A stretch of DNA of 64,000 bases from Candidatus Latescibacterota bacterium (GCA_965223905.1 CBDCXV010000001.1:1216001-1280000); one strand, 5' to 3'. Positions 35,309 through 60,331 are shown, counted from the stretch's first letter. The notes: generated by a model not told the origin, from the sequence alone. Numbers and translations are program-made.

Positions 35309-35650
35309 TCAACCCGCATCGCTGATTTCAACCAGAAGCTCCCCCTTGGTTACCAACTCGAGGGCATCCGGAAGGGTTTTCGATAAGATCGTTCTCAAGC
35401 GTGCATTCGAAGTATTTCCGCAGGTAATCCAGATTACTTTCGGGGGAGACCCCAGACGTCCCGACAGCTCGACAAAGTCTCGATCCTTGGTTATCACAAT
35501 CGCGTCAGCTTCCCGCGCGGAGTTAAAAACATCGAGATCCTCAGCCTCCCTGAGACCCAGATCGCGCACATGGACAATATCCAAGCCAAAGGCATCGCGA
35601 ATCCACGGGGCGAGCCTTGGGGAAATTTGAGCGTCGAGCCAAAGGGTCAT
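35309..35650 (-). CDS. DUF5615 PIN-like toxin
   Basis: WLDAQISP..HVRDLGL..D..I.TKDRDF..PPKVIW. Confidence 0.9.
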   Translation of the reverse strand: MTLWLDAQISPRLAPWIRDAFGLDIVHVRDLGLREAEDLDVFNSAREADAIVITKDRDFVELSGRLGSPPKVIWITCGNTSNARLRTILSKTLPDALELVTKGELLVEISDAG

Positions 35651-42436: not shown

Positions 42437-43228
42437 TCATACCAGAACCTCCTTCTCGAGGTAACTGCTCCAAATAAGGTCCAGGCCCCGGGCGGCCCCC
42501 AGGGGAACCTTCACGTCGACCAGGTGGGATACGTCGCTCGAACCCGGGTTGATCTCTATGGTGGGCCGGCCCATCCGGCTGGCTGCCTCAACCGGCCCCG
42601 AGATATAGGGGAAGAGGCTTGAGGTGCCGATGGAGAAGACGCAGTCGAACCCGAGGGCCAGCTCTTCCTTCAATAGCTGCACCTTGTCGAGGGGAAGCAT
42701 TTCTCCGAACAGCACCACGTCGGGCCGCAGCATGGCCCGGCATCGCGGACACAGCGGCGGAAGCGTGAGATGGCGGAAACCCTCGACTGTCTCCCGGAAG
42801 GGACAGGCCGTGCACATGAGCTGGTGAAGATCCCCGTGTATGTCGATCACGTTCCTCGAGCCCGCGGCGCGATGGAAACCGTCGACGTTCTGGGTCAGGG
42901 TCCAGACCCTTTCGAAGTGGTTCTCGACCTCTACCACCACCTCGTGGGCCCTGTTGAACCGCGCTCCCCGGCAGGCGGCTTCGATCTGTCCCAGGTATTT
43001 CCAGGTGAGCGCCGGATCCCGCCTCATGGTATTTCCCGACAGCACCTTTTCGATAGGCATCCCGTTCTCGGTGGGATCGACTTCGTAGAGCCCTCCCACA
43101 CCCCGGTAGGTCGGAATCCCGGAATCCGCGGAGATGCCGGCCCCGGTGACGAAGAGCACGCTTTCACATCCGTGCAGGAACCCGGCTGCGCGCTCGATCT
43201 CCTGCGCATGGCGGCCGGGGTCGTTCAT
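42437..43228 (-). CDS. cobB: NAD-dependent protein deacylase (sirtuin, CobB-type)
   Basis: TGAGISADSGIPTYRG, TQNVDGFH, HG, two CxxC, RPDVVLFGE, GTS. Confidence 0.92.
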   Translation of the reverse strand: MNDPGRHAQEIERAAGFLHGCESVLFVTGAGISADSGIPTYRGVGGLYEVDPTENGMPIEKVLSGNTMRRDPALTWKYLGQIEAACRGARFNRAHEVVVEVENHFERVWTLTQNVDGFHRAAGSRNVIDIHGDLHQLMCTACPFRETVEGFRHLTLPPLCPRCRAMLRPDVVLFGEMLPLDKVQLLKEELALGFDCVFSIGTSSLFPYISGPVEAASRMGRPTIEINPGSSDVSHLVDVKVPLGAARGLDLIWSSYLEKEVLV

Positions 43229-43418
43229 TTCGGGGTTTGCCGTATCTGCGGACAAGGGTCCTGTTGGCAAGATATGCAGGGTCGCTCCTCCTTGAAGGGA
43301 ACCGTTTTTTTCCTGGCCGCCGCCGCCGGACGGTCACGTCGGAGCCCAGGCATATTGCCTCACTCTCCAAGTGGCCACGGTTAAGCATCGACCGCATCCC
43401 CGGCCACCCGGAGCTCGT

Positions 43419-44213
43419 TCAATCTTCCAGCCTGTGCCCGCAGTTGGGGCAGTGCCGCGCGTGCTCGTGCCGGCTCTGCAGCTCGTCGACGAAGCCGGCC
43501 CCGAGGATGCCCGCGGGCAGAGCGAACATGCCGATCCCCATCACCGCGATGCAGGCGGCGATCATCTTTCCCACCGCCGTGACCGGGTAGTAGTCGCCGT
43601 ACCCGACCGTGGTCAGGGTGATCACCCCCCACCACATGGTCTGCGGGATGCTGGAGAACTTGTCCGGCTGATCGTCGTGCTCGGCGAAGTACATGAGCGA
43701 GGCGGAGATCACCAGCAGGGTCAGCAGCACGAAGAAGATGCTGGTCAGCTCTCCCCGTTTTCCCACCACCACCCGCCCTAGCAGCCTGAGGGCGCTCGAA
43801 TAGCGAAACAGTTTCGCCAGGCGGAAGAAGCGCAGCATGCGGACAATGCGGATAAACCGCATGTCGATGCCGACCAGCGGCAGGTAGAGCGGCAGAATGG
43901 CAAGCAGATCGATGAGGGCCATCGGCGTCACGAAGAACCGGAGCCGGCCAATGATGGGGCGGGGGTACTTCGGGTCCGCGGTGCAGGACCACAGCCGCAG
44001 GACGTACTCGATGCTGAAGATGATAAGGGAGATCCGCTCGAACCAATGGAAGGCGGCCGGACTCAGGGAATAGACCGGTTTAACCGTTTCCAGGGTCAGG
44101 GCCAGGATGTTGAGGAAAATTAGCCCGATGATGCCCAGGTCCACGGCCCGGCTGTGGGGGTCTCCGTCGGTCGACACGGCCAGGAGATGGTGAACACGCT
44201 CCTTCAGCGGCAT
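43419..44213 (-). CDS. Voltage-gated potassium channel (6TM)
   Basis: S4 RFIRIVRMLRFFRLAK; selectivity filter TTVGYGD. Confidence 0.93.
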   Translation of the reverse strand: MPLKERVHHLLAVSTDGDPHSRAVDLGIIGLIFLNILALTLETVKPVYSLSPAAFHWFERISLIIFSIEYVLRLWSCTADPKYPRPIIGRLRFFVTPMALIDLLAILPLYLPLVGIDMRFIRIVRMLRFFRLAKLFRYSSALRLLGRVVVGKRGELTSIFFVLLTLLVISASLMYFAEHDDQPDKFSSIPQTMWWGVITLTTVGYGDYYPVTAVGKMIAACIAVMGIGMFALPAGILGAGFVDELQSRHEHARHCPNCGHRLED

Positions 44214-44287
44214 GGAATACCTCGCGGGTTGGAAATACGGATAGCAGGGATTCAGGGATCAGTTGGTTGTAAACCATATCCCCGGTC

Positions 44288-44360
44288 GAACAGGTCATAC
44301 GTCTTCTGGCTACCGCCCATCCTTCGGACAGGACTTCGGCCTGTTCCAGCACGGTCTGCG
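44288..44360 (-). repeat. Leftover copy of the hsdR 3' end, part 2
   Basis: Matches 46332-46403; encodes [17 protein letters not shown] with mostly synonymous differences. Confidence 0.9.
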
Positions 44361-44416
44361 CTTCTGGGGTAGCAGGGCATCCAACAACGTTCCAGGTGTG
44401 CGGCAACGGCAATCGC

Positions 44417-44653
44417 TCAGTGATCCGCCTTGGCCTCCGTTACCTCTGCCACCTCCACCACCTCGGCAGTCGCTTGGGGTTCCGGGACGGGTTCGCCGTC
44501 ATCACGCATACCTTCGATATGGAACTCGATGGCCTCTCTGATTTCGTCCAGCAACTCTTCCCGGGTGCTCGCCGTAGCAACGCATCCGGGAAGGTCGGGC
44601 ACATAGGCCGCATAGTTGTTGGGGGACTGTTCAATTACGATGGTGTATTTCAT
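44417..44653 (-). CDS. hicB: HicB antitoxin
   Basis: MKYTIVIEQSPNNYAAYVPDLPGCVAT..EAIEFHIEG..PVPEP. Confidence 0.92.
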   Translation of the reverse strand: MKYTIVIEQSPNNYAAYVPDLPGCVATASTREELLDEIREAIEFHIEGMRDDGEPVPEPQATAEVVEVAEVTEAKADH

Positions 44654-44661
44654 GGGCAGGA

Positions 44662-44859
44662 TTACTCCTTCAGGCCGGATTGTTTCAATATGCTGTTCCA
44701 GGTTCCTGGAGGAAGGTCGTCGCCTGGCTTTCCGGGAATGGTTACACGGCCAGGTTTTTCTGGATGTTTGAATTGGCGGTGGCTTCCCCTGGTACGAACC
44801 AGCCGCCATCCGTCCCGCTCTATCGGCGGATAGCCGTGCTTGCGCAAGATGCGGCGCAC
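44662..44859 (-). CDS. hicA: HicA toxin with its N-terminus replaced by HsdR sequence
   Basis: DGW..RGSHRQFKHP.KPGRVTIPG..GTWNSILKQ; 44824-44871 matches hsdR 46423-46470 at 47/48 bp. Confidence 0.85.
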   Translation of the reverse strand: MRRILRKHGYPPIERDGWRLVRTRGSHRQFKHPEKPGRVTIPGKPGDDLPPGTWNSILKQSGLKE

Positions 44860-44912
44860 CAGGACTCGAAGCTTCGATCTTTTCTTTGTAGCGGCGCGCC
44901 AGGTTCAGTCGC

Positions 44913-46169
44913 TCAGTCATCCGCCCCGTTCCCCTCAAACTGCCGGCGCACTTCTCCGGTGCCCACGAATTGGGACAATAGTCGGTAGTTGCCCAACTCA
45001 TGGCGGACACGGCCGGCGATGACTGCCGGGTGGACCTGGGCTTCCCACGCCATTTGCAGCACTGCCATCGGCCCCGGGTTTTCCAGGATAATGCCGTCGT
45101 CCCAGATTTCCGGCGGGGTCAGGGCGTCCTGCGCGAACTGGTCCGCCTCGTGTTCCGTGGGGTCGCTTCCGCCGGATTCAACACCGCGCAGACTGAGGTC
45201 ATCCACGAAGCCGGTCTCGTCGCTGCCGGTGCCCAAGTGGAGCCCGACGTGGCCCAGTTCGTGCAACAGGGTGAACCAGAAGTTATCGATGCGGTCGTAG
45301 CGCAGGGTCAGCCCGACCACCGGCCGGCCGTCGGGGAGCCGGAGCGCCGCGCCGTCCAGATGGGTTCGGGGCAGATGGGGCACGTACTCCAAGCCGATGC
45401 CGTTCCCGGCCAGGAAGTCGCGGGCCCGACCCGGGCCGTCTTCCCGCGTGCTCAGGCGGGCCACCTCCCGCAGGAACTCGGGAGTAACCGCACCTGAGCG
45501 GCCGGGGCTCATCCCGCGCTCCCGGGCCCTGGCGATCACCTTCCAGCACCACGCCTGCAGTGCGTAGTCGTCGGTCTTGGCGTTGATCCGCCGCTGGTCG
45601 TTCCTGCGGTACATCGGCCGGGTGGCGAACTTCCGTCCCCCGGCCTGATCGATCAGGCCGCCGATCAGCTCCTCGGCGCGGTCCTTCAGGTCGGGGGCAT
45701 CGGGTATCCAGGCCGCCCTGGCCATTGCCTTCAGCGGAAACCGGGTCCACTCGAAACCGGGCAGTTGCTCGGGCAGCGTTGCGCCGGGCTCTTGCAGCAG
45801 CAGGTCCGCCGGTATCCGGAGATGCCGATGCAGCGCCCGGGCCATGGCCATGGTGATGGAGCGCTTGCCCGACAGGACTTCGGACACCTTGGCGCTGCTT
45901 CCAAGGAACGGTATGAGGTCCCTCTGAGTCATGCCCATCTGGTCCATCTCAAATTCGATGGCGGCTGTTACGCTGGGAAACCCGGTGGGATAGTGCTTGT
46001 CTTCGTATCGCTCAACCAGGTCGGAGAGGACGTCGAGCTCGAGCCTTCGAGGATCGTCTTCGTCCTCGATCTGCCCTTCCGGCGGTGAAAGAGCATCCAT
46101 GAGCTCCGATATGCGGGCCAATGCCGCTTCGTAGTCTTCCTCGGTGCGGATCGGCCGGATGGCTGCCAT
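44913..46169 (-). CDS. HigA-type HTH antitoxin fused to an ImmA/IrrE metallopeptidase
   Basis: IRPIRTEEDYEAAL..SEVLSGKR; LTLRYDRIDNFWFTLLHELGH (HExxH), E.EAD.FA. Confidence 0.9.
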   Translation of the reverse strand: MAAIRPIRTEEDYEAALARISELMDALSPPEGQIEDEDDPRRLELDVLSDLVERYEDKHYPTGFPSVTAAIEFEMDQMGMTQRDLIPFLGSSAKVSEVLSGKRSITMAMARALHRHLRIPADLLLQEPGATLPEQLPGFEWTRFPLKAMARAAWIPDAPDLKDRAEELIGGLIDQAGGRKFATRPMYRRNDQRRINAKTDDYALQAWCWKVIARARERGMSPGRSGAVTPEFLREVARLSTREDGPGRARDFLAGNGIGLEYVPHLPRTHLDGAALRLPDGRPVVGLTLRYDRIDNFWFTLLHELGHVGLHLGTGSDETGFVDDLSLRGVESGGSDPTEHEADQFAQDALTPPEIWDDGIILENPGPMAVLQMAWEAQVHPAVIAGRVRHELGNYRLLSQFVGTGEVRRQFEGNGADD

Positions 46170-46171
46170 TT

Positions 46172-46342
46172 CTACACCTCCTCGACGTTGATCCGGTTGT
46201 ATTCGGCGTGAGTGCCCACGAACCGTACATACACTACTCGTCCGGGGTAGAAGACTCTGGCGACCAGGCGATAGTCGTTGCCCTTGATTCGAAACACCAC
46301 GCACGAAAATGTTGCGGGAGAAGGAATAAAGGAACCGGTCAT
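46172..46342 (-). pseudogene. higB: 5'-truncated HigB toxin
   Basis: Only VVFRIKGNDYRLV..VRFVGTHAEYNRI remains. Confidence 0.8.
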
Positions 46343-46347
46343 ACCTC

Positions 46348-49490
<3,143 letters not shown>

Positions 49491-49494
<4 letters not shown>

Positions 49495-49910
49495 GGGGGA
49501 TCCCAAGGGTTGACGAGCTCGACATTCAAGCATTCGAAGTCCCTCACGTTACGAGTGACTATCGCCATGCCGTTGGCCATTGCGGTTCCTGCGATAAGCG
49601 CGTCGCCGAGCTCCAACTTTCCACCACTCCGATGCACGCGCGCCTGGAATGCAGCGGCCCACTCGGCTTCCCGCCTCCCAATCGGCGATACGCGCCCTTC
49701 AAAGTCCGCCAGAAGCAGAGACAGCCATTCCCTCAATCTATCGCGGCGGCCGCCCTCCGGGAGAAGTTGAACACCCAATTCAAGCTCCTCGACGACGATA
49801 GCCGGGAGCCACAGATTTTCCTGTGCGTTCAGATAGTCCATGACACCCGGGTCCGGATTTTCCCTGGTCAATTCCGAAACCACATTGGTGTCAAGGAGAT
49901 AACCGCTCAT
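49491..49910 (-). CDS. vapC: VapC PIN toxin
   Basis: [16 protein letters not shown]....[11 protein letters not shown]; stop overlaps the hsdR ATG. Confidence 0.93.
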
Positions 49911-50185
49911 TCGTCCGCTTCGTCGATAAACGGAATTTTGCGGCTACTCTTGCGGCAACTCGGGATCTCAAGGTTGGTGCCGCGTGGCGTATTTGCAACG
50001 AGCCACTGGCCCAAGGGTATGGACTCCGGTGCCCGAGCCTGCCATACATGCTCGGGCACTACGATGAAAGGTCGCCGGGCACCGATGCGCTGGGGACCCT
50101 GCGTTTCGGCTAGACGCAGGATTTCGGACAGCCGAGCCTTGGCCTCGGCAACCGTCCAGACGCGGCCGGGATCGGAGGCAAGCAT
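49907..50185 (-). CDS. Phd/YefM-like antitoxin
   Basis: WTVAEAKARLSEILRLA..GPQRI; coupled to vapC. Confidence 0.88.
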   Translation of the reverse strand: MLASDPGRVWTVAEAKARLSEILRLAETQGPQRIGARRPFIVVPEHVWQARAPESIPLGQWLVANTPRGTNLEIPSCRKSSRKIPFIDEADE

Positions 50186-50214
50186 GGTTGGTCTCCCTTT
50201 GAGAAAGGTTGATG

Positions 50215-50231
50215 TAGTCTATAATAGACTA
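50215..50231. promoter_or_regulatory. Palindromic operator of the antitoxin-vapC promoter
   Basis: TAGTCTA-TAA-TAGACTA, 30 bp upstream of the antitoxin start. Confidence 0.65.
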
Positions 50232-50261
50232 TGACCTTTCGTCAGGCAAGCTGGCAAGGGA

Positions 50262-50362
50262 AATCAGGGGGATATCCGGGGCCCAGGGAGGAACTGCCAA
50301 CCGACGCCGAAGAGCCAAGCTAGGGAGGCCTGTTTAACGTCGGTTTCGGTGAGGGTGGTAAT
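50262..50362 (-). pseudogene. Degenerate copy of the hsdR 5' end
   Basis: Aligns with about 49395-49494; reads [23 protein letters not shown], with ATG changed to ATT. Confidence 0.88.
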
Positions 50363-50366
50363 GGAG

Positions 50367-51385
50367 CTACCCAATGGTGAATGGACGACTATCTGCAACC
50401 TCTTTCATTTGTAGGTTATTTTCTTTAAAAAACTTCAATAGGGCTTGCCCATAGGTAACCATAGGTTCAAAACCGACAATCCTTGACAACTCTCTCCCCG
50501 ATCGGGTCAAAGCCACGCCCGACACCCGAAATTCTTTGTTCGGGTCACGTTCAGTAGTGGGGGATAAGACCCAATATTTGCCCTGATAAGAGAAAGGGAT
50601 GAACAACATGCCCACTTCAGCTTTGGATGGAAAAGGCTCTATGCACAGATTGTAGTCGAACCAAGAGTTGTAGTCAGAGATGATGAGTCCATGCTCGTTA
50701 AGCACGTTTAGTTTGTCGAAGTTGAGCCCATACTCTTCAAGGGCATTTGTTGCCGCATTACCTCCTATTGAAGGGACTCTGGTATCAAGGAAATGGCGAC
50801 CCTCCGTTTTTACCGATATACAGGCTGAGCATAACTTTGTAAAGAGCTTGGCTGTTTCCTGTTCGAGATTCCGTAGGATGCTCAAAGTTTGTATGGACGT
50901 ACTCTTGGGTCGTTCTACTTCGCCTGCAAGAACCTTAGCCCATAGCCGTTGCATTTCTTCGGAAGATACGTCTTGGACATCGTTAAAGAATCGCGCTGTC
51001 CAGTCGTTATCAACTTCGTGATTTTGGACTTCCCCGTCTCCAAGTTCCAGAGCTGCCTGCTTTACTACCGACCCGATGTTTGCCTGGCGTTTCTCTTCTT
51101 GAAATTGAATCCTCTGAGTAACAAAGTCACCAAGGATTAGTTCTCCATGAATTTTGGCATCCGAAGCTAAAAGAGTCGACCGAGCATCCGATTGAGCCTT
51201 GGCAATCAACTGAACTGTGGAGGCTCGCCCAACTGTCAGGATTTCCTGTTCTTTTACTTCCCCCTCTGCAGCAATCACTTTCGCTTCGGCTTCTCTGCGA
51301 GCCTTCCAAGGTGCCAACATTGAACCAGCAACACTGCCAATACCGCTTGCCGCATAGTCCAACAATTTTTCCAGAGCTGGTACTT

Positions 51386-51401
<16 letters not shown>
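50367..51401 (-). CDS. DUF2806 domain protein (low GC)
   Basis: VDNDWTARFFNDVQDVSSEEMQRLWAKVLAGEV.RP. Confidence 0.8.
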
Positions 51402-53073
<1,672 letters not shown>

Positions 53074-53077
<4 letters not shown>

Positions 53078-53493
53078 TCCCAAGGCTCCCCTGTCATGGC
53101 GCTGTAGAGCTTGATGGCGTCGCTTATGAACTCCGGGATTACGGTAATGGCATTGGCGGCCTTTTCCCGGTCGTAATTGTGTGTGGTGTCTATGCGAGTT
53201 TGTACATAGAGCTCCCACTGTTCGCCACCCGCGGCCAGCAGGTGGTTCTCATCAGCAAGACGGAATATGGGCCTGGGGCTGTTGGGGGTTTCGGCGATTC
53301 CAAGGGCCTCCACGAGATGGCGCCTGAGGATTTTCCACAAGGTGTCAAAACAGATTTCGAACCGTTGGATTACCGATTCCGCCATGCCTTCTTGAACGAA
53401 CGACGGATAATCCCTCGGCAGGTTAAGCAGGTGGTCGTGCTGCGTCTCCAGATTCTTCAGGGACATTTGGAGGTTGCTGTAGTCTATTGGCAT
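53074..53493 (-). CDS. HEPN-fold protein (nucleotidyltransferase substrate-binding, HI0074-like)
   Basis: IQRFE..WK; R-x4-H motif RIDTTHNY; ATGA overlap with MNT-hsdS. Confidence 0.88.
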
Positions 53494-53495
53494 GG

Positions 53496-53696
53496 TTATA
53501 CCTCGTCGGAAGTAGCGCGGGGCTCCGGGACGGGGTCCCCGTCTTCACGCATGCCTTCGAGGTGGAACTCGATGGCCTCGCGGATTTCTTCCTGCAACTC
53601 TTCCCGGCTGGTCCCCGTCGCCACGCAGCCGGGCAGGTCGGGCACGTAGGCCGCGTAGTTGTTGGGGGTCTTTTCGATTTGGACCGCGTATTTCAT
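53496..53696 (-). CDS. hicB: Orphan HicB antitoxin
   Basis: Close paralog of 44417-44653 (NNYAAYVPDLPGCVATG). Confidence 0.88.
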   Translation of the reverse strand: MKYAVQIEKTPNNYAAYVPDLPGCVATGTSREELQEEIREAIEFHLEGMREDGDPVPEPRATSDEV

Positions 53697-53726
53697 GGGC
53701 TGGTTCTGCCCATCCGGCATTATCCC

Positions 53727-53915
53727 CTCACTTGTTCGCCGCGGCTTTGGGAAGTTCCCGCACGGCGGCGCGGGTCCGCTGCTCGGCTGTAGCGAGATCA
53801 AACTGGGTCTGGAGGTTTATCCAGAATTGAGGCTCGACACCGAACCAGTGCCCGAACCGCAGCGCGGTATCCCCGGTCACGGAGCGCTCGGATGTACTTC
53901 GGTCGGTCGAATCAT
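53727..53915 (-). pseudogene. higA: Internally deleted HigA antitoxin, not in the ORF track
   Basis: GGAGG RBS, MIRPTEVHP, then out of frame VTGDTALRFGHWFGVEPQFWINLQTQFDL. Confidence 0.8.
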
Positions 53916-53947
53916 TGTGCTGCGCCCTCCATACTTGGTCAGATGGC

Positions 53948-54281
53948 TATTCTCCGTACATCTCTCCAATAAGGCGCCTGAGTTGGCCGGCTGCTTCGGC
54001 AGACAATTTGTCGATCTGGTCCTCAGTCGCTGCTTGCTGATGGTGCGGATCTGGTCCACGGCAATTTCAGCTTTCTTGCTCGCGCATTGGATTTGCAGCC
54101 GGCTCCGCCACTGAGGATGCAACGCGTAGGTGAGAGGACAGACGACAACGGTATCGAGGAACTGATTCATCTCATTCTGACCGACCACAACCACCGGCCG
54201 CACCTTGCGGATTTCCCCTTCCACGGTGGGATTGAGATCGGCAAAGTAGATGGCGTATCGCTGCGGAAAAGCCGCCATCAA
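53948..54281 (-). pseudogene. PemK/MazF toxin with a 1-bp frameshift near the C-terminus
   Basis: LNPTVEGEIRKVRPVVVV..CPLT..DQIRTISKQRL; natural tail IDKLSAEAAGQLRRLIGEMYGE* is in another frame. Confidence 0.8.
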
Positions 54282-54520
54282 TCGAGACCATCGGCGACCG
54301 CGGTGTCGAGATCGCTCCAGTCTTCACGGTCGGATGCCATTGCGCGGTAGGTTTCTTTCCAGGAGAGCTTGTTCTTTTCGTTGCTGTAGAGGAAGATTCC
54401 CTCCTCGGTTTCTTCGAGGAGAAGGGAGTCTCCCCAGCCGTATTTTTGCAGCAGGATCTTTGGGATGCGGATGCCCTTCGAGTTGCCGATGTCGATCAGT
54501 TTGATATCTCTGGTTGCCAT
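54278..54520 (-). CDS. AbrB/MazE antitoxin
   Basis: IGNSKGIRIPK; coupled to the toxin gene. Confidence 0.9.
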   Translation of the reverse strand: MATRDIKLIDIGNSKGIRIPKILLQKYGWGDSLLLEETEEGIFLYSNEKNKLSWKETYRAMASDREDWSDLDTAVADGLD

Positions 54521-54549
54521 TGCCTGGAGTTTCTCCTGAAAGAAACACT

Positions 54550-54583
54550 GTAATTCCAGTAATTACTTGTTGAGTGGTGTCAA
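54550..54583 (-). promoter_or_regulatory. Promoter/operator of the AbrB-PemK module
   Basis: TTGACA at 54583-54578; imperfect palindrome GTAATT..AATTAC at 54550-54566. Confidence 0.6.
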
Positions 54584-54585
54584 GC

Positions 54586-54657
54586 CTGCCAGCGGATGCG
54601 CTCCATCCAGGCGAAGGCGATTTGTGCGCCGTCGGCTTCGGTGACGTTGATGGTCAT
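54586..54657 (-). pseudogene. Older degenerate hsdR 5'-end stub
   Basis: MTINVTEADGAQIAFAWMERIRWQ versus Hsd[24 protein letters not shown]. Confidence 0.65.
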
Positions 54658-54739
54658 GGTCCCACGCTAACCCAGGTTCGAATCGTTTATTCGGTCACAC
54701 TCCGGGAGTCATCCCGCAGAGGCGGGCTTACCCCGGATG

Positions 54740-54994
54740 GTCATTGCCACCAGGTCCAGGTCGCTCCCCCTCATGGCTCTCGCCATAGACCCGGCTGCCC
54801 AGTGCCCAGACCTCAGGGGCACATGCTCACGCAGCAGTCACAGCCTCGCCAATGATCTCGAACTCGCGCTCTACCGCGGCTCGCAGCATGGCGTCGCGCT
54901 GATAATCGTCAAAGGTCTGTCCGGTAACGAATTCATCCAATAAGCGCGCAGCTTTGTGGATGTCATACAGGTATTTCCGAGCTTCAAGCCGCAT
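54740..54994 (-). pseudogene. Truncated HepT/DUF86 toxin joined to a degraded MNT fragment
   Basis: MRLEARKYLYDI..RAAVEREFEIIGEA, then LLREHVP/EVWALGSRVYGESHE/SDLDLV. Confidence 0.75.
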
Positions 54995-55292
54995 AGAGCC
55001 GTGTCCTGGTCTCTTCGACTCGTTGACGGAAGAAGGGGTTCTTTATGGCGGAATCAACGACGAGGTCCACAGGATGCCCGAAGAGGGATTCCAGAGCCTC
55101 CAACAGCCCGAAGTAGGCGTCGGCATAGGCTCGAAAAGCCTCCGGCCGAAACTCCACCACGAAGTCCAGGTCGCTCTCCTCCGGGCGGTGTTCGCCGGTA
55201 ACAGCCGAGCCGAAAAGGTCCAGCCGCGACACGTTGTAGCGGACGCAAAGCTGTTCCAGTTCGCCGACCCGTTTCTCGACAATAGGTATCAT
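54984..55292 (-). CDS. MNT (MntA-like) nucleotidyltransferase antitoxin
   Basis: LDLFGSA..SDLDFVVEF..VDLV..KNPFF. Confidence 0.9.
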   Translation of the reverse strand: MIPIVEKRVGELEQLCVRYNVSRLDLFGSAVTGEHRPEESDLDFVVEFRPEAFRAYADAYFGLLEALESLFGHPVDLVVDSAIKNPFFRQRVEETRTRLYAA

Positions 55293-55331
55293 CGGACGCT
55301 CTCCTGATAAAGAGGTCTCTCTATCCCATAT

Positions 55332-57073
55332 TCACTGCTTGAATGGCCGATACTCGACCAGTGCCGACCGTCCCACGATTTCCACGATTCGCGCGGTCAT
55401 CTCGACGCCATTGACATCGGTGAGCCTCAGGTCTTCCCCAGGTGCAAAATGCACCGGCTGCTGCTGGCCCTGGTTGATGGCGATGTTCGAGGCGTAGAGA
55501 TAGGTCCGGTCGAGGGTGTCTCGTTTAGGATTCAGACGCCCCTTGAGCCCGGGAATGTCACCGGTTGCCTCGGGAAGAATCACCGCGCCGCCGCCGGAAA
55601 GGGGTTTGAGTTCCACGGCCAACGCACCATCCCCCGGGACCCACCCAAGTTCAAGGTGTGCGGCAAAGCCCTTGTCGGCGACGTACACCGTCATGGGAAG
55701 GTCCGTCGCGTACAAGTCCATCGCCGCTTCTCCGTTCGCGTCTGTCATGGCTCGTTTCCAAGTGTTGTTGGGAAACAGCGCCAGTAAATCGGCTCCCGCG
55801 ACCGGCCGATCATCTCGACGAACCGTCACCGCGACAGTGGCTGGCGTGGCATTCGTGGCCGCGGCGGGAAGCGTCAGGAAGAGGTCTGACTCAGCAAGAA
55901 TCCAATACTTGGCGGTTTTCCCGCTCAACGCCTCGGTCTCGCGCAGGATAATGGGAACGCCATCGCCGCGACGCTCCATGAAGAATTGACGCTTTTCGGA
56001 CCCGGGAATGTCGCCAACGGGCATTCGTCCGAGCGCGGATGCGATGGTTTCGTTGCGCGTCGCTTGCCGAGCTGCCATGCTGTCGATGGTGAGATTGTTC
56101 GCCAGTCCACCCGGCGAATTGATTTCTATGCGGTCTGCAAACATGGACATTCGAATTCGGCTGCCGCGGATCGAATAGTCCCGATGAGCGACGGCATTCA
56201 CCATCGCCTCGAAAAGTGCTTCGGCACTGTACTGAGGAAGGTCCATGCGGGCAGGTTTCTTGTACGCCCCAACGCGCATGTTGCGCATCACAAAAGCCAT
56301 TGCGTCCGCCACCTGCTGGTTGATCGGACCCGTGATGATCCGCGCATCCAGTTGGCCGGATGCCCGGTCCTTCCCGCGATAGTGGGTCGCGGTAACGCAA
56401 GCGTTGGGAAGCCACTGCTCGGGGGTGTGGGTACACAGGAGAATCCCCGCCACGGTGGCTCTCACTGCGCCGTTCTCATCCCTGCCCAACAGCGCGAGTT
56501 TTTCCAGTGCCGTTTCGGGACCGGCCCGGCCGCTCGCGCTGAGCAGCGGCTTCCAAAGTGTTTCCTCCAGCGTGCGGAACCCGGTATTCGGAACGGGCTG
56601 CTCGTCGAACCAGCGATAACGCGCCTGGCCGCGCTGTTGAGCCAATCGCATTCGCTCGTCGCTGGCCATCTGGCGTTTGGAACTACCGACGCGCCGGAAG
56701 CTGCCACCCGGACTGTCGTACTGCGCGGTGCCTTTGGCTACTGAGACGGCCAACAGTGCTTTGTCGTCGAGTTTGTGGCGGGTAATGGCTACGTCGAAGA
56801 GCGGTGGCTTGATCGAGTGGGAACACAACTCGACCACCATGCGTTCCAAAGCGTTCATTTGTTCTCGCGACATGCCCTGTACTTCACCGGCGTCGGTGAC
56901 ACCACAGAGCAGCACACCGCCGCCGGCATTGGCAAAAGCCGCTATTTCATCTGCCAAGTCGTTTCGTTTTGGTGCCGTCGGACGGTCGGCCCGGAACTCG
57001 ACCTGCTTGAACTCCCAGTAGCTGTCCTCACCTGAATCCAGTTGGCGTTTGATATCGTCCGTGTTCATTCGGA

Positions 57074-57077
<4 letters not shown>
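55332..57077 (-). CDS. Schlafen/AlbA_2 + HATPase_c_4 (RecG-C-like) protein with atypical beta-rich C-terminus
   Basis: [23 protein letters not shown]; [27 protein letters not shown]; ATGA overlap with the hsdM stop. Confidence 0.85.
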
Positions 57078-58675
<1,598 letters not shown>

Positions 58676-58700
58676 TGAGATGATTTCTTGCGTTTGTAAC

Positions 58701-59228
58701 TCAACGTCTCAGCTTGCGGTACTCCTCGCACGACTCAGACAATGAAGGCGGGACGGGTGACCGGAGTTCTTGGATCTCATGGCACATCCGGAACAGTTCG
58801 TCTGCAAAGGAGCGTTGCTCTTTCGGTTTCCGGCGGGGATACCTCTCATTTTCGATAACAGATTCGCCGTCAAGGTAGGCAAACCAAGTCTCTATATTCC
58901 GTCGCGGAACGAGGATGATCACAGGTTCTTCCGTTTTTCTTGGATCTACCTTTTGGATCGTGCACTCATCGTCAAGCTGAGATCGGCGGAATTGAGTCGT
59001 ATGCTTGTCCGCGTCGATGGCGACGATCAGGAAGGCGTTTTGCCGGCTTCGAATCGCCTTCAATTGGTCGGGATACTTCTCACGAACCCATTGCTCGCCG
59101 GATCGGGATCCATGTGGAATCGGAAACGTTCTGATGTCGTGAGGTGTGAATTGCCGCCGGCGAAGAAAACGGCGTACGAACGTGTCTGTCGCTGCATCCT
59201 CGCAGAGCAGGACGATGCGGACGCTCAT
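58701..59228 (-). CDS. TOPRIM-like protein (DUF4276/RloB/AriB-like)
   Basis: VLLCED, IVAIDAD, NIETW; ATGA-coupled to the ATPase. Confidence 0.7.
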
Positions 59229-60331
59229 TCCCAGCGTCTTGCTATGGTTTCAGACAGGGACAGGCCATCTACCGTATTGTTTGGTTTCTTGCTCACCCGC
59301 ACCGGGCCGTCTCCTTCGCGAAAGAACCATCTGCCGTTCGCGCCTGCCATGTAGTCAATCGTCACGGGGTGATGGGATGCGACGACAACCTGTCCCAGAG
59401 ACTCGCCGGCTTGCTCCGCTGCTTCCGCGAGCCAAGGCTGTACTTCCCCAAGGGCGAGGTAGTTGTCGGGTTCGTCGACAAACAGCGAAACCTGCCCTTC
59501 CGAGGAGAGGTGGATCAGGCTGTACATGGCGATCAGGGCCCGTTGACCATCCGAGAGCTGATCGAAACCGTAGCGGACTGGCTCGGAGGACGGGCCTTTA
59601 AAGATTGCCTTGAGGGCGCGGGAGTTCTCTCCGGATTCCGTCAAATTGATCGAGTCGAAACCAGGGAGGGTTTCGCGAAGTGCCTCGAACAGCGAAAAAA
59701 TGGAGCGCATATTTTCCTGTGCAGCGCGGCGGTACCAGCCGACGAAATTCTGCATCAAAGGATCCAGGAACTCGTCCTCGGTTCTCGTTTCGGGTGCCAT
59801 TATCGCCGGACAGCAGCTGACGACTATGTAGTTGCCAATCTCTTTTTTGAACCGAGTCAGCTTCTTATTGTCGGTCCTTTCGTTTAGGAAGCTAATTCCG
59901 GACTGCGACCAATCGAAGGGATATGATGGGCCTTTGGAGTAATCGTCGTGGTACAGTTGCGCGTCACCATTTTTGAATGCAAAGATCGGGTTTCCGTCGT
60001 GTTCAAGCGTTTCTTCCCAGACTCGCATCCTATTGCGAGGGACGTCATGCTCAACCATCAGGGAGTAACGGTAGGATTCTTCGTCGATCCGGGTTTCGAT
60101 TTCGAATCTTTGTTCGTTGCGTTGTCCGTACAGGGAGATGTCCCGGGCAGGGAACACGGTATCCACTTTCCAGCCCCGAACGATCAGGTTCTGGATATTC
60201 CTGAGCACGTTCAGGACTGAGGTCTTGCCTGTTCCGTTCCGCCCCAGAAAGACGTTCGTCTGGTCGAGATCCAAGTCGAAATTTTCCAGACAACGGAAGT
60301 TGTCCACGTAGAGTCTTGAGAGCACGGGCAT
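59225..60331 (-). CDS. ABC-type ATPase (AAA_15/AAA_21)
   Basis: VDNFRC, GRNGTGKT, LSDGQR, FVDEPDN, ASHHP. Confidence 0.9.
   Translation of the reverse strand: MPVLSRLYVDNFRCLENFDLDLDQTNVFLGRNGTGKTSVLNVLRNIQNLIVRGWKVDTVFPARDISLYGQRNEQRFEIETRIDEESYRYSLMVEHDVPRNRMRVWEETLEHDGNPIFAFKNGDAQLYHDDYSKGPSYPFDWSQSGISFLNERTDNKKLTRFKKEIGNYIVVSCCPAIMAPETRTEDEFLDPLMQNFVGWYRRAAQENMRSIFSLFEALRETLPGFDSINLTESGENSRALKAIFKGPSSEPVRYGFDQLSDGQRALIAMYSLIHLSSEGQVSLFVDEPDNYLALGEVQPWLAEAAEQAGESLGQVVVASHHPVTIDYMAGANGRWFFREGDGPVRVSKKPNNTVDGLSLSETIARRWE

Follow-up and report, generated by a model that had tools for sequence, protein, structure and literature searches.

Copies of hsdR ends beside toxin-antitoxin and defence cassettes in a Type I restriction-modification operon: likely scars of repeated cassette gain

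In a stretch of 64,000 nucleotides (nt) of a Candidatus Latescibacterota genome (GCA_965223905.1 CBDCXV010000001.1:1216001-1280000; the whole stretch is called the window, and positions are counted from its first letter), a Type I restriction-modification (R-M) operon carries many toxin-antitoxin (TA) and other defence genes, together with up to four partial copies of the ends of its own restriction gene, hsdR. We hold it to be somewhat better than an even bet (roughly 0.55) that this operon is a sink for TA and other defence cassettes and that the hsdR-end copies are recombination scars. The repeats themselves, a cargo that varies between relatives, a junction common to several genomes, stubs that diverge from the resident gene as alleles do, a mosaic between close relatives and the failure to find recombinase genes in the locus and its flanks are all directly visible.

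All features of the locus lie on the minus strand and form one intact Type I R-M operon, as judged by Pfam and PADLOC on the open reading frames (ORFs) of the window. The order is hsdM, an AlbA_2/HATPase_c_4 gene, MNT with a cut HepT, a probable old hsdR stub (stub 3), mazEF, hicB with a hicA remnant, HEPN, MNT::hsdS, DUF2806, the 5' stub of hsdR, vapBC, hsdR itself, a PD-Lambda-2 remnant, one piece of the hsdR 3' end (copy 1) fused to hicA, hicB, another piece (copy 2), an ion-channel gene and a Sir2 gene. The cargo of the operon therefore comprises mazEF, two hicB-containing modules, two HEPN/MNT pairs, vapBC, a truncated PD-Lambda-2, the AlbA_2 gene and DUF2806. An earlier note on this stretch had claimed four hsdR-end copies, which were tested by self-BLAST of window positions 43000-59000 and a repeat search. 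They are listed here below the gene itself.

46348-49494, minus strand: intact hsdR, 1048 amino acids; Pfam HSDR_N, SWI2_SNF2, T1R_D3-like and T1RH-like_C; PADLOC REase_I over 2-1043
50263-50378, minus strand: hsdR 5' stub, positions -15 to +99; matches hsdR at 49396-49510, 79.5% over 117 nt, E 1.8e-21
44824-44871, minus strand: hsdR 3' copy part 1 (copy 1), positions -122 to -75; matches 46423-46470, 97.9% over 48 nt, E 3.9e-17
44288-44360, minus strand: hsdR 3' copy part 2 (copy 2), the last 18 codons with the stop lost; matches 46332-46403, 84.9% over 73 nt, E 4.8e-16
54583-54657, minus strand: stub 3, a probable old hsdR 5' stub, 25 codons from ATG and then a stop; tblastn match to residues 4-26, 43%

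The 5' stub, which had been placed at about 50262-50362, is real. Its start codon reads ATT instead of ATG and a stop stands at codon 33, and in a genome-wide search with a profile of the HsdR N-termini of 13 relatives it came second (E 1.1e-7), the real start coming first. Stub 3, claimed at 54586-54657, fared less clearly: it shows no DNA similarity to hsdR in the self-BLAST and ranks 47 of 2966 in the same genome-wide profile search, with 5 bits, which is not significant, but a targeted tblastn over only the 12.5 kb upstream of hsdR returns it as second-best after the 5' stub (E 0.002-0.005). With the genome of the window called G000 and other genomes of the same class numbered likewise, its 25-residue peptide has matches at E <=1 in 17 of 132 genomes of the class. 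Beyond G000, G002 and G112, most of them are the first 25 codons of hsdR-length frames, the best being an hsdR fragment in G030 (48%, E 0.0046). Stub 3 is 99.7% identical in G002, and a copy cut at its 5' side precedes mazEF in G112. It is probably a much older hsdR 5' stub.

At the opposite end of the gene, a single 3' copy was said to be split by hicAB. Both parts are real, lie 19 nt apart in hsdR coordinates and have hicA-hicB between them, but they are not one copy, for G002 has copy 2 without copy 1. Copy 1 differs from hsdR by one synonymous change and is fused in frame to hicA codon 13; copy 2 shows 7 synonymous changes to 1 non-synonymous (the lost stop). The pooled ratio of 8:1 bears out the earlier statement that the differences are mostly synonymous, with an origin in a functional allele. 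A truncated higB and higA-ImmA do sit between copy 1 and the real 3' end of hsdR, as had been described. The hicA gene (44662-44871) is itself a chimera: in place of the native N-terminus, which is found in G002, codons 1-12 derive from the hsdR 3' copy, joined in frame, and the native promoter and start have been lost. Elsewhere in the genome, an isolated hsdR C-terminal fragment (residues 941-1045, 79% amino-acid identity; G000:C10:69628-69942, locus L027 9629-9943) lies beside an ISL3 transposase gene.

Direct repeats of the target longer than 30 base pairs (bp) thus flank inserts on both sides of hsdR, 117 nt around vapBC and 48 nt around the PD-Lambda-2 remnant. In G002 hicAB is cleanly bracketed by a 73-nt repeat; in G000 the corresponding two copies enclose the PD-Lambda-2 remnant as well. 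With up to four scars in one operon, the locus is an unusually rich example.

Comparison of orthologous loci, which the earlier note had proposed, shows that relatives vary in cargo at the same slots and that several of them have stubs. Thirteen other genomes of the class have an hsdR orthologue, at amino-acid identities of 72-93%. In G001 and G002, which belong to the same genus, the locus lies between the same ion-channel and Sir2 genes and the cargo is different. In G002 the intact hsdR is followed, after 80 nt, by a native hicA, by hicB and by copy 2, and PD-Lambda-2 and copy 1 are lacking. In G001 a hicB-like gene comes after hsdR, then an internal hsdR fragment of 50 nt, PD-Lambda-2 with full A and B, and a PIN_4 gene; vapBC, the 5' stub and copy 2 are lacking. 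Since G002 has an intact hicAB and copy 2 but no copy 1, copy 2 would be an old scar of the hicAB event. Copy 1 is best read as a young copy specific to G000, and the 19-nt gap between the two as a by-product of a deletion running from hsdR position -74 to hicA codon 12.

On the 5' side, stubs are also present in G002 (105 nt), G020 (237 nt) and G040 (143 nt). The junction between the stub, at +99, and the vapB leader is identical in G000, G002 and G020, and the DNA upstream differs: DUF2806 precedes the stub in G000, a hicB-like gene in G002 and G020. Other junctions fall at +143 (G040), +233 (G020), +18 (G002) and about +75 (stub 3). In G020 additional pieces of hsdR separate the long stub from the +99 junction, and in G002 20 nt of the hsdR start recur right after the PD-T4-7 gene. 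What lies between hsdS and the stub varies: DUF2806 in G000, PD-T4-7, PDC-S15 and PDC-M24 in G002, a YaaC-like gene in G020 and PDC-S32 with PDC-S15 in G040. The scars appear to be of different ages, as had been suggested: copy 1 (98%) is found in G000 only and copy 2 (85%) also in G002, and on the 5' side the stub at 79.5% has its junction in common with G002 and G020, stub 3 being recognizable at the protein level only. Comparisons with empty sites are less clean: G002 is without PD-Lambda-2 and copy 1 but differs there by another 163 nt, and G001 is without vapBC and stub but carries other upstream DNA. In G001 the hsdS-hsdR slot holds an IS630-type DDE_3 transposase gene (L014 8596-9681); on this example, the slot seems to take in ordinary insertion sequences as well.

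Chimeric joining of strains in a metagenome-derived genome could in principle produce such structures, and the sequencing runs do hold many related hsdR and hsdM alleles, with summed depth rising to thousands in the conserved parts. However, the same stubs and junctions recur in the independently assembled G002 and G020, and contigs of other studies match the window without differences over the junction of the hsdR stop with higB (X6, 45663-46397; X8, 45663-46435) and over that of DUF2806 with the stub (X7, 50260-50994). The four runs compared consist of contigs of mixed communities, for which neither depth nor uncovered parts are informative; the whole 5' stub is spanned by a contig of X4 (50130-50977), possibly the source sample. 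No contig bridges the junction of copy 1 with hicA by the 31-letter rule applied, X4 having 29 letters on one side. Joints in X8 link 44360 to 46412 with 8 letters between them and 90% likeness, which is only a hint that other organisms have intact hsdR alleles ending like copy 2. The misassembly that the earlier note had held up as a danger is largely refuted, and we find it hardly credible.

The footprint extends well beyond the class. We surveyed 80 loci of the hsdR family from many phyla, taking one genome per species; 64 had one full-length match. DNA-level copies of the locus's own hsdR ends (E <1e-4) were found in 12 of these 64. Ten of the 12 have a 5' stub lying 0.85-3.7 kb upstream, which in nine cases starts within 34 nt of the start codon, and three have copies of the 3' end region. 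When every allele was used as query at the protein level, 24 of 76 loci gave matches and 18 of 76 a robust 5' stub, that is, one matched by at least two alleles, on the same strand, starting within the first 20 residues; the six loci dropped had a weak sole match from one or two alleles, internal to the gene, two of them on the opposite strand. Robust 3' copies number three of 76 (the window locus, L048 and G001).

In the ten loci with a DNA-level 5' stub, where the DNA between stub and hsdR was annotated, TA or defence genes lie in that interval in nine; the remaining one, L053, has no defence family there. The cargo of the nine is vapBC (L042 and L114), ThsB-TIR with 8xMP, Abi_C, DUF6978 with DUF1828, Mrr, hicAB, DUF4365, RhuM/Fic and AbiEii. 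Two stubs, each accompanied by a cassette, are nested in L042 and likewise in L082; in the 3' cases the enclosed DNA is a methylase/HATPase block in L048 and an AlbA_2 gene in L085. Among 53 loci with hsdM upstream, the hsdM-hsdR gap exceeds 2 kb in 47 and leaves room for hsdS only in six; DNA-level stubs occur in 7/47 wide-gap loci versus 0/6 narrow-gap loci. VapBC abuts the hsdR start in nine of 76 loci, with remnants in five more. HsdR proteins of this family are 63-85% identical across records labelled as many phyla (loci L038-L117), which argues for a wide horizontal spread of the whole operon.

With the same slightly favourable odds, we propose that each scar would result from a homologous crossover in hsdR paired with an illegitimate join in the resident end. 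The incoming DNA, derived from a related operon, would carry a cassette adjoining the donor's own hsdR end. The first crossover would be homologous and lie inside hsdR; the second join would be illegitimate and fall within the resident hsdR end. As the incoming piece would bring a complete end, hsdR would stay whole and the resident end would remain as a dead stub, no integrase or transposase being necessary. Later deletions and recombination between stubs may then have reshuffled the array, and several toxin genes may have decayed. The scars would be termini because only events that keep or rebuild a whole hsdR survive, and the stubs would be tolerated because they are costless. We infer both this mechanism and the order of events. 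A process of this type, homology-facilitated illegitimate recombination, with one homologous anchor and one illegitimate join, was reportedly described in laboratory transformation by de Vries and Wackernagel in 2002; at hsdR such a process would be deduced from sequence, and the readable junction has a single nucleotide of microhomology.

In the main alternative a cassette inserts in place into the resident hsdR end, 50-250 nt of target being copied on both sides by break-repair or template switch, after which the stub decays and the working copy is sometimes replaced by another allele. Pooled over stubs and their resident hsdR, we counted 318 synonymous differences over 606 sites (Sd) and 426 non-synonymous over 1827 (Nd), a pN/pS of 0.44 that is biased downwards, stubs being found by similarity and synonymous sites being near saturation (pS 0.52). 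Functional hsdR N-termini compared with each other give 0.36, and one neutral plus one constrained branch, as expected after duplication in place, about 0.68 by calculation; single stubs give 0.25 (G000), 0.35 (G020) and 0.18 (G040). Several stubs are moreover closer to a foreign allele than to the resident one: 72 versus 61% and 69 versus 53% in L082, 78 versus 69% in G002 and 77 versus 68% in G020. These values support a derivation of the stubs from functional alleles, suggested earlier for the 3' copy, and an allele-like divergence from the resident gene.

The downward bias of pN/pS nevertheless weighs against the crossover-and-join proposal, and so do the following points. The 5' stub of G000 has the resident allele as its best match, and the near-identical copies (copy 1 at 98%, L089 at 97.7%, L048 at 96%) are young; both observations fit duplication in place equally well. 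The junction of copy 1 with hicA, the sole one readable against parent sequences, has 1 nt of microhomology only. The 3' arrangement of G000 needs at least two steps under the proposal, an insertion and then a 163-nt deletion. No two genomes turned up with just one event between them, so that the donor and the zero-time state of the repeats went unseen. Duplication in place gains further from its layout, which, in the portion of PMC2853133 at hand, is that of R-M genes with repeats spanning start or stop so that the target gene survives; and the patchwork of three hsdR 5' pieces in G020 would suit template switching. We consider it a serious rival, albeit an unlikely one.

The region around the 5' end of hsdR is a mosaic. 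Identity between G000 and G002 is 97-99% for vapBC and for hsdR up to nt 30, 79% for the stub and 66-77% for hsdR nt 30-500; counted per 100-nt window, hsdR codons of about 10-175 (window 48967-49463) are 66-85% identical at the DNA level and the remainder of the gene 88-100%. For the first 530 nt of hsdR no sampled relative is more than 78% identical, and alleles seem to exchange the portion that encodes the N-terminus of HsdR. This mosaic points to frequent recombination near the 5' end of hsdR. In conservation among 74 alleles, the opening 30 nt of the gene stand 90th of 104 windows (0.62, versus a mean of 0.72 for the whole gene), and variability is highest in the first 300 nt. The idea that specially conserved hsdR termini serve as recombination anchors, put forward in the earlier note, was accordingly rejected. 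Its wider claim of repeated cassette gain without a recombinase at the hsdR ends stood up.

The same mosaic bears on a bolder version, in which the hsdR-end copies are portable homology arms and stub plus cassette a recombinase-free mobile unit travelling between Type I operons. The shifts in identity between G000 and G002, at the stub and at about hsdR +30, on either side of the near-identical vapBC, are compatible with it; the G002 stub resembles stub A of G020 joined to the junction of stub B, and stub 3 with mazEF is found behind HepT (G000, G002), a higA fragment (G020) and AlbA_2 (G112). The low conservation of the hsdR 5' end speaks against it, however, as does the fact that four of nine loci with an intact vapBC before hsdR have no stub within about 1 kb. 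Some 100 nt at 70-80% identity are, in addition, a poor substrate for homologous recombination, and we judge this version improbable, more so than duplication in place. A related suggestion, that hsdR-family operons form an integrase-free cassette platform on which a cassette and its hsdR-end copy make a unit placeable before or behind any related hsdR by host homologous recombination, is doubtful, though a shade less improbable than the homology arms. If it were true, defence and TA cassettes lacking mobility genes would pass between operons of distant phyla, and the nesting of stubs would preserve the order of acquisition.

Returning to the crossover-and-join proposal and the scars that it would leave, the nearest known rearrangement is insertion with long target duplication, which Nobusato and colleagues are said to have reported in 2000. 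As set out in the sections of PMC2853133 consulted (Furuta, Abe and Kobayashi 2010), inserts there lie between direct repeats longer than 30 bp and come without a transposase or integrase; in many cases the repeats include a start or stop codon, which leaves the target gene intact, and R-M genes are sometimes the target. The hsdR-end copies resemble that description in repeat length, in layout and in that no mobility gene was found beside the insert in the window. They are unlike the cases of those sections (PMC2853133) in that the insert there is an R-M system with mostly near-identical repeats, whereas here the cargo consists of TA and defence cassettes. Here, too, the target is the two ends of hsdR, and the stubs are nested, up to three per operon, and 79-98% identical or recognizable at the protein level only, with allele-like divergence. 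The hsdR-end scars are a variant of this known type of rearrangement, new in the defence cargo and in the nesting of stubs; the idea of termini as anchors is unproven.

Minimal mobile elements of Neisseria offer another parallel, with varied cassettes exchanged by homologous recombination between conserved flanking genes and no mobility genes of their own. To our knowledge they leave no duplicated stubs of the flanking gene, unlike the hsdR locus.

Defence genes are often embedded in other defence operons, and in the portions of the compared papers seen here their route of entry is left open. Embedding in Type I R-M operons is described by Payne et al. (10.1101/2024.01.29.577857) as 'guilt by embedding', with the idea of a "genomic sink" and no mechanism in the part consulted; the main text, as far as covered, lacks the words recombination, duplication, truncated, remnant, homologous and hsdR. 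In PMC12255303, as far as its text was available, DarTG2 lies between hsdS and hsdR, PrrC is cited and the slot is called a potential recombination hotspot, again with no mechanism. Our operon is like those described in these excerpts in having cargo of the same orientation between hsdS and hsdR, and cargo families already known, PD-Lambda-2, PD-T4-7, PDC-M24, PDC-S15 and PDC-S32, are present here or in relatives. What the stubs add, relative to the same excerpts, is a physical footprint of entry. A search for literature on truncated, partial, duplicated or remnant hsdR returned, among the titles listed, nothing on stubs beside embedded cassettes; the supplements of the Payne preprint and of PMC2853133 may list cases.

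As a readable footprint, the stubs would speak of entry at the very ends of hsdR, without a recombinase, repeatedly, and with hsdR left whole each time. Because this footprint is present in 18 of 76 loci of many phyla, it can be searched for systematically and used to order acquisitions. It also carries a warning for annotation, since small ORFs with an hsdR-like start that precede TA genes would be scars and not genes.

The remaining genes of the operon, all on the minus strand, are as follows.

57074-58675, minus strand: hsdM, 533 amino acids; Pfam N6_Mtase 1.2e-104 and HsdM_N 9.5e-28; PADLOC MTase_I 1.2e-213
55332-57077, minus strand: embedded AlbA_2 (Schlafen-like) and HATPase_c_4 gene; Pfam 4.8e-18 and 6.9e-17
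54984-55292 and 54827-54994, minus strand: MNT antitoxin and HepT toxin cut to 55 amino acids; Pfam NTP_transf_2 7.4e-14; PADLOC PDC-S09
54278-54520 and 53877-54281, minus strand: mazE and mazF; Pfam PemK_toxin 8.4e-20, MazE_antitoxin 0.0015, which is under the curated cut-off
53496-53801, minus strand: hicB copy 2 (53496-53696) with only a hicA remnant upstream; Pfam HicB_lk_antitox 4.4e-12
53074-53493, minus strand: HEPN (NTase_sub_bind) gene; Pfam 4.1e-19
51386-53077, minus strand: MNT domain fused in frame to hsdS in one ORF; Pfam Polbeta/NTP_transf_2 and Methylase_S 4.8e-12; PADLOC Specificity_I 2.3e-105
50367-51401, minus strand: embedded DUF2806 gene; Pfam 7.8e-35
49907-50185 and 49491-49910, minus strand: vapB and vapC; Pfam PIN 8.4e-14, PhdYeFM 0.0036, which is weak
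46172-46342 and 44913-46169, minus strand: PD-Lambda-2 remnant (PADLOC), higB without its 5' half and intact higA-ImmA
44662-44859 and 44417-44653, minus strand: chimeric hicA and hicB copy 1; Pfam HicA_toxin 6e-22 (residues 14-63) and HicB 2.3e-13

With an HsdM that has both the N6 methylase and HsdM_N domains, an HsdS with target recognition domains and a full-length HsdR, whose four Pfam domains span residues 17-1055 of a 1061-residue ORF and include the nuclease, the SF2 motor and the C-terminal domains, hsdM...MNT::hsdS...hsdR is a working-looking Type I R-M system. The MNT domain is the N-terminus of the HsdS fusion, directly 3' of the HEPN gene, and fusions of 555-560 amino acids are also found in G002, G020 and G040; such a protein could physically tie the HEPN/MNT module to the R-M complex. 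The AlbA_2 gene recurs at 64-99% amino-acid identity in G001, G002, G012, G020, G032 and G040.

Four toxin genes (HepT, one hicA, higB and the chimeric hicA) are damaged, and their partner antitoxins are whole. HepT matches only positions 1-42 of the 120 of its Pfam profile. PD-Lambda-2_A matches over 55-97 of 97 only, against 1-397 of 402 for PD-Lambda-2_B (9.8e-121; both PADLOC), so that the complete system, which has A and B at full length, is absent from the window; both are full in G001. The two hicB copies are 82.8% identical over 204 nt (self-BLAST).

The vapB and vapC ORFs overlap by 4 nt, with a PIN toxin after a small antitoxin as in VapBC type II TA systems, and the vapC stop overlaps the hsdR start as ATGA. 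According to the earlier note, each of the two 5' stubs is directly followed by a TA promoter. Two overlapping sigma-70-like sites do lie between the 5' stub and vapB (50257-50221), in a scan that gave 4 sites in all against 2.6 expected, but that scan found no such site before mazE. Some 30 nt ahead of vapB (window 50221-50257, minus strand), a palindrome of about 20 nt around TCTAnnnTAGAC is conserved in nine of ten aligned loci of several phyla, including L042, L047, L057, L075 and L114, and is probably a VapB operator. A common left end of the vapBC cassette was sought in ten loci and rejected, this operator-like palindrome and about 60 nt before vapB being all that they have in common.

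As the earlier note had observed, no integrase or transposase is visible: Pfam scans of 38 ORFs, 19 of the locus and 19 flanking it (window 28-64 kb), contain no such family. A repeat search gave four weak inverted pairs only, kilobases apart and with none recurring between cassettes, and no search aimed at attC was made. A reading as integron or transposon was rejected on the lack of intI or any other recombinase in those ORFs and of recurring inverted repeats.

Directly upstream of hsdM (58704-60331, minus strand), an ABC-type ATPase (AAA_21/AAA_15; PADLOC PDC-M25A, HEC-01A-like, E ~1e-21) stands with a 175-residue ORF without family, and the two may be a further defence pair. Finally, a DUF5615/PIN_10 gene, the toxin part of TA pairs of the DUF433-PIN type, lies about 9 kb from the operon (35312-35650, minus strand); the same family is found inside vapC of G040 and behind hsdR in L048.

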